UHGV virus genome: UHGV-0130462
DNA: 38,884 nt
Origin: a virus
Reading direction: 5' to 3' (one strand)
How positions within the stretch are numbered: position 1 is the stretch's first letter; each line of letters begins with the position of its first letter. Shown piece by piece: positions 5,719 through 8,025 of this stretch. The notes beneath the pieces were generated by a model. It saw only the letters and a program-made list of their open reading frames with translations. It ran no database searches and had not been told where the DNA came from. A program made the position numbers and the translations under genes.

Positions 5719-8025
5719 TTACATTGTGTTACGTATACCGCTATAGAGCTGTATGCTATCTATGATAAACTGAAAATTCCCACTGGAATTTGTTCTAATT
5801 AAGGCCTTAATCACACCCGCAGAAGATGGTTTAATATGTGATGATATTAGTGAAAAATCATATTTGTTATTAGGGTAAACAGATTCTGCTATGCCGGCCG
5901 TATTATCCCTCTCCCCTTCAATTATAAATATCTCCGGCTGTCCGAATTCTGGAATCCTTTTAACTACAGATAACAATGAATAGGTTTGCTCAGGGTTAAG
6001 CTCAGATATTTCATAAATAACACCCTGGAACGAACCGCCACTTATTAATCTTGATGACACTCCTGTTGCGAAGTCATTACTGCTAGCGATAGTTACTGTG
6101 CTATTTGAGGCAATAAATGGTAGCTGGGAAGATGACAAATAAGGGTTAGTAATTAATGGTGAGTTATCAATCCGAGTGACAGGTGAAACAAAATCAGACT
6201 CAACGAACCCCTCGCTAATAGATGCGCCTGCTATATAAAAAACACCAGTTTGACTGGAGTCTTTCATTTTGCATACAGCCCTAATCTCAACCTCTCCGCT
6301 TGCTGAAGACGTTATGATAATACTAATTGTATCACTTGTATAAGTGGTTCTTTTTGTTAAACAATAAGAATAGGTTACGCCAATAGCGCCTGAGTTTATT
6401 TGAATGCACTCAGCGTTTGAATTTTCATCCAAACCAACTTGTAAAGAAATGGTGTATTTAACACTTGGCTTTAATCCTGTTATTTTTTTTGTTACCCCTT
6501 GAAAGTTTCCAGCTAGAATTTTTTTTGCTGAATACAACGTAGTTTCATCATCTTTTGCATTTGAAATTACAACTGATGAATTAGTTGCAACAAAATTAGA
6601 TAAATCTAACATGTCTTGTAGTTTTTTATGCGAAACAGAACTATTTAGCTTGAATTTGTTTTTATGATAAACATTCCCAGCAGTCCATTCATAATCAGCA
6701 CGTACATAACCATCCGTATCATCAAGATTGTTATTCCTACCTCGATGATATATTTTACCAACATTCACATTTGAATTTTTATCATGTTTTATTCCAGCTT
6801 CATTTTGAGCAAATGCTATTCTTTCAATATCTACATCACTGTTTTGAACGTATATTGAGCCGCTCGCAATATTGACTGTGTCTACCTCAACATTATAAGA
6901 ATCAATAATATTGACAGCCTTACCATGACCAACTCCCAACCCATTCGGGTCAACTTCTTCTATCCAGCCATTCGTTACTTTTACTGTGCTGCTACTCAAT
7001 ATTGACAGTGGATTTTTCATTAAGTCAACACCTGAGCTTCCTGCGATATTAAATGAATCTAGTGTAATTACACCACCGTTCAGGATTGCCCCATGATTTA
7101 AGCTGCCAATAATTTCTATATTTTTTGCAAAAACTGTATTTGAACCGCCAACGGATTTTATTCCGTAACTGTCATCACCTGCGTATTGATTAAAATAATG
7201 ATGATGAAAATTTTCTATCGCTAACTTGCCCCAAATCTTATCACCAGTTTTAACCCCTCTAGCTATCTGATCTAACCAGATATTAGATAGTGTTATTCCC
7301 CTAAGACCTTGCTTTATATCAATAAAACCATTGTTTCTAATTGGTGACCCTGGATTAGCGCTACAAATTATATTTTCTATTGTAAGTCTCCTGACCCAAT
7401 CATCACTTACAAAAAGCGTATCGCCGTCATCCATGTCTAAAATTAATTTAGATTTATTACCAAAGCCATAAATAAATCCATCGTACCCATTAAGAGATAT
7501 CGACCCGCTTTTAAAGAGAAAGTCACCTTGAGGGATTAAGAATGGCTCACCTGACTTAATAGCTCTATCCAATGATGAACTATTATCCGTCATTCCATCG
7601 CCAACGCCGCCCCAATCACAAAGTGTACCGATATCGCTCAATGATACCTGGTTATTCCTGCTCGAAAAAACCCTAGAACTACTAAATCTATCTGGATCAT
7701 ACTTCAATACATTCGGATAATAGAATTGCTTTACGCCGTAACTGTTATACACAGCCATACTGTGACCTTCAACTGTCACGAATTTAGCAATTTGACCATT
7801 GTAAACAGGAAATCCAGCCTGATTGATAATTAATGGCTGAGGAACTGGAATGTGAGAACCATCTTCATTTTCTAAATAAACCTGAATTTGGTTTTCTGGT
7901 AATGTTGGATCGGTATCAATTTTACCAATAAAAATCCTACCATTACTCGCCGCTTGGAATTTCCTTGCGAGAGTGAATAATTGTGACGGCATTGACACGA
8001 CGACATTAGGGATAATATCTGACAT
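5719..8025 (-). CDS. tailspike protein: P22 gp9-type N-terminal head-binding domain fused to a distinct receptor-binding (beta-helix-like) domain
   Basis: N-terminus [11 protein letters not shown]...IGKIDTDP...[10 protein letters not shown]...GHSMAVYN...NVLKYDP closely parallels the P22 gp9 head-binding domain; start refined to ATG 8025 (GGAG upstream) from ORF track 8037. Confidence 0.9.

Follow-up and report, generated by a model that had tools for sequence, protein, structure and literature searches.

The question raised by this locus is whether its tailspike is a chimera, in which a P22-type head-binding domain carries a receptor-binding body of different origin, and what such a body would act on. 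The locus lies in the UHGV virus genome UHGV-0130462, a stretch of 38,884 nucleotides that is called the window in the following, where a single intact open reading frame (ORF) on the minus strand (5719-8025) is the tailspike gene of a Proteus mirabilis phage that is temperate and P22-like (Lederbergvirus-type), next to a Wzy-like gene. A preliminary description, made from the letters alone, had proposed a chimeric spike with an O-antigen or capsule receptor. Its observations are partly confirmed here and its interpretation is supported. The best explanation of the whole locus, which we consider probable, is a chimeric spike that would depolymerize O-antigen and whose body would have been imported together with a serotype-converting Wzy gene.

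A conserved head-binding domain is joined to an exchanged body

The spike is compared below with that of Proteus phage vB_PmiP_Brookers and with three further loci, of which L003 (with an Sf6-like head-binding variant) and L004 are P22-like and L002 is a probable Providencia stuartii prophage of siphovirus type. Its parts, including two domains that resemble carbohydrate-binding modules (CBMs), are as follows.

5719-8025, minus strand: tailspike gene, 768 aa plus stop codon (5719-5721); ORF list
7690-8025, minus strand: head-binding (virion-docking) domain, residues 1-112; PF09008, identity to P22/Sf6 and Brookers
7621-7689, minus strand: exchange junction and neck, residues 113-135; identity breaks against Brookers, L003 and L002
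6736-7620, minus strand: predicted right-handed parallel beta-helix body, residues 136-430, opening with a cap motif
6196-6600, minus strand: beta-sandwich domain 1 (CBM-like), residues 476-610; all-beta model, Foldseek, sub-threshold Pfam
5722-6123, minus strand: beta-sandwich domain 2 (CBM-like), residues 635-768, diverged duplicate of domain 1; blastp, model
4360-7689, minus strand: cassette of tailspike body and Wzy gene, exchanged when compared with the nearest phage; Brookers comparison, L002 block

The N-terminal domain matches PF09008 (Head_binding) over residues 1-113, covering profile positions 1-113 of 113 (Pfam, 214.5 bits, E=3.7e-64). Over residues 1-114 it is 61.4% identical to P22 gp9 and 74.6% to Sf6 gp14, and it shares 93.8% identity with gp16 of Brookers. 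The first ~110 residues had been called closely gp9-like; the assignment stands, and only the word "closely" is slightly generous, as the domain is nearer to the Sf6 and Proteus phage versions than to P22 gp9.

Beyond this domain the similarity to the known spikes ends. A sequence search of the whole PDB returns N-terminal matches only, to Sf6 gp14 (7sg7) over residues 1-117 and to P22 gp9 (8tvr, 2xc1) over residues 1-141, and the second stretches found beyond the N-terminus are not significant (3.8 bits for Sf6 and -3.5 bits for P22). Likewise, tblastn matches to P22-like phages cover only 15-24% of the tailspike query. Colinearity with P22 gp9 over the full length, named beforehand as the finding that would speak against a chimera, is therefore not seen, as the match ends at residue 141, and the domain-wise comparison gives the predicted picture of a conserved head-binding domain followed by a different body.

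The DNA locates the break precisely. Between the window and Brookers, identity is 90.8% over 8049-7690, none is found over 7689-4360, and it returns at 97.3% over 4359-2439. Against L003 the order is reversed, with 63-82% identity followed by 99-100% from about 7660. The horizontal-exchange junction claimed for this gene is thus borne out as a sharp break at codons ~112-122, after which Brookers has a different body and L003 a nearly identical one. Residues F120 and R123 within this region are invariant across all adapters in alignment A2.

The same body is also found on other adapters. Protein P0004 (797 aa), encoded in L002, has a body 89% identical to that of the window spike (93% in the helix) behind an N-terminus matching PF18668, the type of CBA120 TSP1/gp66. 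The genes ahead of P0004 encode a tape-measure protein, a DUF1833 protein, an NlpC/P60 protein and an 824-aa tip protein, which is a siphovirus-type tail, and the Wzy protein of L002 is identical at 409 of 410 residues to an NCBI protein assigned to Providencia stuartii. In addition, gp44 of Vibrio phage PV94 carries the body (33%) on a P2-type fibre N-terminus, and further body relatives have BppU_N or Phage_tail_C adapters.

The exchanged region is itself mosaic. The window and L002 align in one continuous blastn block (7646-4451, 77.8%) that includes both the body and the Wzy gene; within it, identity is 88-99% down to about 6040, whereas the last ~76 codons and the Wzy gene show 55-70%, so that the last ~76 aa of the spike track the Wzy gene. 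In contrast, L004 is ~100% identical over the helix, 69-89% over 6850-6040, and ~100% again from 5950 through the Wzy gene. The segment 6040-6850, which encodes the first CBM-like domain and half of the second, shows roughly 77-99% (mostly 89-99%) DNA identity to L002 against 69-92% to L004, whereas the helix and the wzy end show the reverse preference. This pattern indicates re-assortment of domains within the spike gene. Taken together, the comparisons with Brookers, L003, L002 and L004 point to at least three recombination joints, located after the KYDPD motif (codons ~112-122), at the boundary between the helix and the C-terminal part (~6900), and inside the last domain (~6000).

The body is a beta-helix of a rare sequence family

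An AlphaFold2 monomer model, built on 49 relatives, predicts a parallel beta-helix for the body with high confidence, in line with the fold expected beforehand. Its predicted local distance difference test (pLDDT) values are mostly 90-97 over residues ~130-410, where short strands are stacked regularly in rungs, while the head-binding domain and the linkers are poorly modelled. The top Foldseek ranks for the body are the spikes of Sf6, K2-2, CBA120 (TSP4/TSP2) and P22. AlgE4, PfbA, ORF18 of Geobacillus virus E2 and a GH87 (glycoside hydrolase family 87) glucanase are among its fold neighbours, as are phi29 gp12, CBA120 TSP2, the K5 lyase, the HK620 tailspike and Depo32. The body hence shares its fold class with the P22, Sf6 and HK620 bodies, yet it is a separate sequence family. 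The earlier statement that the remaining ~650 aa are unrelated to the P22 endorhamnosidase holds for the sequence, in which no similarity is found, but not for the fold class.

This family is rare and has no characterised member. An exhaustive HMMER search of 1.84 billion representative proteins (E<=1e-3) yields only 62 body relatives, and a word-indexed protein search yields only four close relatives of the tailspike. The complete body, helix plus two domains, occurs in one other lineage only, represented by P0005 and Vibrio phage PV94 gp44 (33-35% identity). A scan of species-representative genomes with alignment A2 gave 35 pattern matches, none of which was confirmed, so that no loci were added.

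At the level of families, 25 of the 49 aligned relatives match PF12708 (Pect-lyase_RHGA_epim; best E=2.5e-18). The window protein has the GxGDGxTDDTxAI cap motif of PF12708 type, yet it gives no PF12708 match even at E<=5, and the isolated helix has no Pfam match at all at that threshold. Matches of the A1 profile to GH55, pectin-lyase, phi29 gp12 and Sf6 chains fall mainly across the cap region. Moreover, phrog_8280, which is labelled as a colanic-acid-degrading spike, matches residues 1-479. In NCBIfam, neither the spike nor the Wzy protein has a matching model.

Two acidic residues of the helix are conserved throughout the family, and they are the only ones.

7114-7116, minus strand: codon of E304, candidate catalytic carboxylate (NIEIIG); D/E in 48/49 family members
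6958-6960, minus strand: codon of E356, candidate catalytic carboxylate (GWIEE); invariant in 49/49 family members

Between them, N326 is conserved in 47 of 49 members, and R242 is near-invariant in the family. From their register relative to the conserved glycines G307 and G329, we infer that E304, N326 and E356 stack on consecutive rungs at one face of the helix, a geometry that would suit the acid pair of a glycoside hydrolase. We propose E304 and E356 as the catalytic pair because they are the only acids conserved family-wide and apparently lie two rungs apart on one face. A hydrolase is more likely than a lyase for the spike body.

The C-terminal part is modelled as two tandem beta-sandwiches. 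Block-mean pLDDT values are mostly 68-90 for domain 1, with dips to 52-58, and 53-88 for domain 2. The two domains are 39% identical over 49 aa (blastp, E=3e-8). Foldseek relates this part to the tandem CBM22 pair of Xyn10C (4xup, E=2e-7). In Pfam, domain 1 has sub-threshold matches only (CBM_4_9_1, E=0.016; GH101_dom-5, E=0.003) and domain 2 has none at E<=5, while CBM_4_9 is matched by two body relatives. Domain 1 is 77% identical to P0003 and 93% to P0004. This domain pair is the actual repeat of the protein: the GDxxxxSG-type repeats reported for the body could not be recovered, as a regular-expression search finds a single copy, GDFLFKSG at residue 167, and no looser ones.

A Wzy-like gene lies in the same exchanged block

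4420-5643, minus strand: Wzy-like polytopic membrane protein, 407 aa, putative O-antigen polymerase and lysogenic-conversion gene; PF04932 Wzy_C

The neighbouring gene had been called Wzy-like, and its product indeed matches PF04932 (Wzy_C) over residues 215-355, with 33.1 bits that barely exceed the cut-off of 31.7; WaaL and PglL are members of this family as well. By a crude hydropathy scan, the protein has many hydrophobic segments and, at 269-342, a hydrophilic loop of ~74 aa. The protein thus appears to be a polytopic membrane protein with a large loop and a marginally scoring Wzy_C domain. Its true start may be M6 (5628). The slot of the gene, after the spike, is that of gtrABC in P22 and of oac in Sf6.

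Homologues are few, with only 10 clusters in an index of 5.8 billion proteins, and tblastn of the protein against 50,697 phage records gives no match. The homologue in L002 is 56% identical. Five remote homologues (P0068, P0069, P0070, P0071 and P0072; 38-43% identical) all lie in chromosomal polysaccharide clusters (L005, L006, L007, L013 and L014), which contain RmlA/RmlB-like genes, glycosyltransferases (GT2), and FdtA and/or a DegT aminotransferase. Wzx is present in three of the five clusters, acyl- or formyl-transferases are noted among them (a formyltransferase in one), and the L007 cluster has a separate gene of PglL/WaaL type (Wzy_C_2). The homologues thus take the polymerase slot of Wzx/Wzy-dependent clusters. 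Their location in such clusters, one of which has its own ligase-type gene, supports a genuine Wzy polymerase rather than a ligase. In addition, the RmlA/RmlB-like, FdtA/DegT and acyl-/formyl-transferase genes around the five homologues suggest that this Wzy lineage handles repeat units with 3- or 4-amino-6-deoxyhexoses, a possible clue to the chemistry of the receptor.

The Wzy gene is located inside the block that is replaced relative to Brookers and inside the single block common with L002. Its GC (guanine plus cytosine) content is 26.6%, compared with 40.5% for the window, 43% for the virion genes and ~36% for the spike body, which marks it as an acquisition of separate foreign origin that is probably more recent. 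Two IMG/VR prophage contigs have it as their terminal gene. The step from a Wzy-like neighbour to an O-antigen receptor, taken in the preliminary description, is strengthened because the gene has been exchanged together with the body, accompanies it in another type of phage, and has its remote homologues in the wzy slots of Wzx/Wzy clusters.

A search of the cassette for a small inhibitor ORF like Iap of phage D3 found only chance-like short ORFs. Outside the cassette, between wzy and int, a 41-aa strongly hydrophobic ORF at 4002-4127 on the minus strand (MNQVVSSFLFFYVFLCFYVLCLSSLAILYILSTLTKYSLCT) recalls the small polymerase-inhibitor peptide of D3; it may be a chance ORF, because the AT-rich DNA in which it lies is also present in Brookers, which has no wzy. 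Promoter-like sites around the spike/Wzy junction are no commoner than in shuffled sequence (20 against 21.2 +/- 5.0), and an independent wzy promoter is therefore not claimed. Kapi1 (preprint) was considered as a precedent for a phage-borne wzy beside a P22-like spike and set aside, as the wzy concerned is a host gene.

Proposed mechanism and alternative explanations

Residues 1-112 are the head-binding domain of the phage's own lineage, which, judging by homology, plugs the spike trimer onto the conserved tail hub. From residue ~116 onward, the spike is a horizontally acquired receptor-binding body made of a short neck, a right-handed beta-helix and two CBM-like domains. As every characterised spike of this architecture behaves in this way, the protein is expected to be trimeric and to bind and cleave a surface polysaccharide built by Wzy polymerisation, most likely the O-antigen of the host, and cleavage would let the virion work its way down to the outer membrane. 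Within the helix, E304 and E356 would serve as the acid pair, whereas the two CBM-like domains may add avidity or specificity. The body and the adjacent Wzy-like gene appear to have been imported as one block of ~3.3 kb. In the lysogen, the Wzy protein would most likely act as an alternative O-unit polymerase that alters the linkage between units. The re-linked O-antigen would then no longer be a substrate of the spike, which would result in superinfection exclusion and prevent trapping of the progeny.

Several other explanations bear on the nature of the body. That the gene is merely a diverged full-length orthologue of the P22 gp9 endorhamnosidase, without any exchange, was rejected as having a negligible chance of being correct: it would account for the common fold class and the similar length, but similarity to the P22, Sf6 and Brookers spikes is 61-94% before residue ~113-140 and stops abruptly there, and another adapter carries a body with 89% identity to this one. 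The body might instead be a receptor module that only binds and leaves the polysaccharide uncut, as an adhesin or lectin built of a beta-helix and two CBMs would. We regard this as improbable, since the conservation of two acidic positions in 48-49 of 49 diverged relatives, whose adapters vary, suggests an active site, half of these relatives (25/49) match the glycanase-type PF12708, and the characterised P22-like spikes of such architecture are enzymes. A somewhat better, though still unlikely, alternative is a depolymerase of capsule or exopolysaccharide rather than of lipopolysaccharide O-antigen, and/or a lyase rather than a hydrolase. Several observations favour it over an O-antigen hydrolase: the colanic-acid label of phrog_8280; the K5 lyase, K1 lyase, alginate lyases and many capsule depolymerases among the fold neighbours; the near-invariant R242, given that Arg/Lys bases are typical of lyases; and the ability of Wzy to polymerise group-1-type capsules as well, with a phage Wzy altering the capsule type of A. 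baumannii (PMC9241936). However, the conserved pair consists of two carboxylates, not of a Ca-binding Asp cluster with a base. Moreover, the order of spike, conversion gene and int is that of P22, Sf6 and epsilon34, which are O-antigen-specific, and surface specificity in P. mirabilis is dominated by the O-antigen, capsules having the same O-unit structure where they are present.

The link between the body and the Wzy-like gene could also be fortuitous, the gene being a hitch-hiking moron (a WaaL-type ligase, another membrane protein or a generic exclusion factor) placed beside the spike by an insertion hot-spot. The difference in GC content from the spike body speaks for such an origin and against joint import, as do the lower identity of Wzy (56%, compared with 89% for the body) between the two phage types, the breakpoint at about 6000 that splits most of the body from Wzy, the NCBI name "O-antigen ligase family protein" for one Wzy homologue, and the presence of a different moron in Brookers at the Wzy position. 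On the other hand, body and Wzy gene are contiguous in one homologous block in the unrelated siphovirus-type prophage L002, they are adjacent wherever downstream sequence is available (L002, L004 and the two IMG/VR contigs), and the wzy-slot position of all five remote homologues, with Wzx seen in three clusters and a separate PglL/WaaL-type gene in L007, fits a polymerase. We therefore consider a mere hitch-hiker rather unlikely and retain the co-imported polymerase. A more far-reaching version of this co-import is tentative, and we give it somewhat less than an even chance: body and Wzy would form a mobile two-gene cassette for attack and disguise, in which a linkage-specific depolymerase travels with the polymerase that rewrites this linkage, and which moves between podovirus-type (P22-like) and siphovirus-type prophages of Proteus and Providencia. 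The breakpoints at about 6900 and 6000 would then let the CBM-like domains re-assort relative to the helix and Wzy, and the rare Wzy lineage, with its chromosomal relatives in amino-6-deoxyhexose clusters, would predict the sugar chemistry of the receptor.

Which serotypes of Proteus, and perhaps of Providencia, the phage can infect is set by the spike body. If expressed, this body could give a new O-antigen depolymerase for typing or for anti-biofilm use against a catheter pathogen, and serotype conversion in Proteus lysogens could be due to the linked Wzy gene. The locus documents that receptor binding and receptor modification can be passed on in a single block between phage morphotypes.

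The tailspike gene in its phage genome

The tailspike gene starts with the ATG at 8025, which is preceded by a Shine-Dalgarno-like GGAG 7 nt upstream; an in-frame TTG at 8037 is a less likely start. The gene is already in databases, though uncharacterised, because P0001, named "phage tailspike protein [Proteus mirabilis]" at NCBI and comprising 34 member sequences, differs from it at one residue only. Some 15 P. mirabilis contigs carry P0001, and the longest contig with it is a 4.09-Mb chromosome.

8138-10354, minus strand: gp16-like ejection (DNA transfer) protein, directly upstream of the tailspike gene; phrog_770, E=4e-147
8087-8102, minus strand: terminator-like hairpin in the gap that separates the gp16-like ejection gene from the tailspike gene; pattern scan and sequence read, a consensus match only
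2817-3992, minus strand: tyrosine integrase, downstream of the Wzy gene; PF13356 and PF00589, 97.3% DNA identity to the Brookers int region

The window comprises an entire lambdoid phage genome, temperate and P22-like, in vegetative gene order. The early and control genes include a CI-like repressor, O/DnaB-type replication genes, NinG, NinI and Q, and the P22-type virion module is followed by ejection genes, tailspike, Wzy-like gene and integrase. The three ejection genes upstream of the tailspike match phrog_598, phrog_917 and phrog_770, and L004, which has the same layout, gives Pfam matches to P22 coat, gp4, gp10, gp7, gp20 and gp16. Particularly, PF26808 (Phage_P22_gp16) matches the 738-aa counterpart of the gp16-like protein at the same position in L004, where the DNA is 94.7% identical to the window. 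The tailspike gene thus lies in a P22-like virion module, behind ejection genes of gp7/gp20/gp16 type.

In the window, spike, wzy and int are contiguous (2817-5643 for the latter two), which is the vegetative (circular) order, whereas the IMG/VR prophage contigs end with wzy; the window hence resembles a complete phage genome of ~38.9 kb and not an integrated prophage with flanking DNA. The attP site is expected within 3993-4359, and a tRNA scan found no attP-associated tRNA. The gap between the gp16-like gene and the spike (8026-8137) is only 112 bp long and contains the terminator-like hairpin. It has neither the lipoprotein and Arc genes of Brookers nor the Arc/Mnt-like gene of L003, and the phage therefore has no immI-type region.

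Two further genes were observed elsewhere. Between the gene for the Q antiterminator and those for lysis, a 260-aa ORF at 24628-25410 on the minus strand matches phrog_6287 ("BstA abortive infection system, replication inhibitor", E=9e-48) and is a probable prophage-encoded anti-phage defence gene. In the early-left region, an ORF at 1801-2358 on the plus strand resembles DNA methyltransferases (phrog_111, E=1e-74); Brookers likewise has a methyltransferase gene near its integrase.

Comparison with known systems

The spike resembles P22 gp9 and Sf6 gp14 (PDB 2xc1, 8tvr, 7sg7, 2vbk) in its PF09008 N-terminal domain, its predicted right-handed beta-helix body, and the position of its gene after the ejection-protein genes and before the conversion gene and int. 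With Sf6 there is also a weak profile-level link to the first helix rungs (A1 profile against 2vbe, E=5.9e-10). The spike differs from both in having no pairwise sequence similarity past residue ~120-140, in ending with two tandem CBM-like beta-sandwiches instead of the P22/Sf6 C-terminal domains, and in the absence of immI genes upstream.

The nearest sequenced phages are the Proteus phages vB_PmiP_Brookers (OL539469) and vB_BPM-V3 (PQ539422) of the genus Lederbergvirus, with virion genes 93-94% identical in DNA, a head-binding domain ~93-94% identical and an integrase region 97% identical. However, the Brookers spike is 625 aa long with an unrelated body, a theta-like ORF takes the place of the Wzy gene, and lipoprotein and Arc genes are located upstream of the spike.

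For the body, the relatives lie elsewhere. PV94 gp44, annotated as "tail fiber protein" (NC_027368, Peduoviridae), and P0005 have the complete body (33-35% over residues ~130-768), with E356 and many positions of the Gly/Asn ladder in common. PV94 is in contrast a contractile-tail phage of Vibrio vulnificus whose uncharacterised protein has a P2-type Phage_tail_fib N-terminus and is not followed by a Wzy gene. Much closer is P0004 of L002 (89% over the body, 93% in the helix), with a homologous Wzy gene next to it in one DNA block; it differs by its PF18668 adapter, its siphovirus-like tail genes, and a lower identity in the last 76 aa (68%) and in Wzy (56%).

Modular tailspikes, in which a conserved anchor carries horizontally exchanged bodies, are well established across genera including Lederbergvirus (PMC10408124). 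The principle seen here, in which beta-helix bodies are exchanged on a conserved adapter and a conversion gene lies beside the spike, is a textbook one, and the locus is in this respect an ordinary example of host-range change. It is a clean further case of this arrangement, with an uncharacterised and rare body family. Mildly new is the presence of a receptor-modifying Wzy gene in the same exchanged block as the spike body, also in another morphotype and genus, a co-occurrence that rests on a handful of loci.

Phage-encoded polymerases provide the last comparison. Salmonella epsilon15 encodes a beta-polymerase. In P. aeruginosa, Wzy-beta of phage D3 converts the O-antigen (PMC4815439), and a prophage Wzy alters the capsule type of A. 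baumannii (PMC9241936). The system described here is similar to these three, being a temperate phage with a Wzy-family polymerase that is expected to re-link repeat units and to alter serotype and phage sensitivity. It differs from them in that its Wzy protein has no detectable sequence relation to phage records and no companion inhibitor was found in the cassette, and in that the Wzy gene is physically coupled to the spike body.

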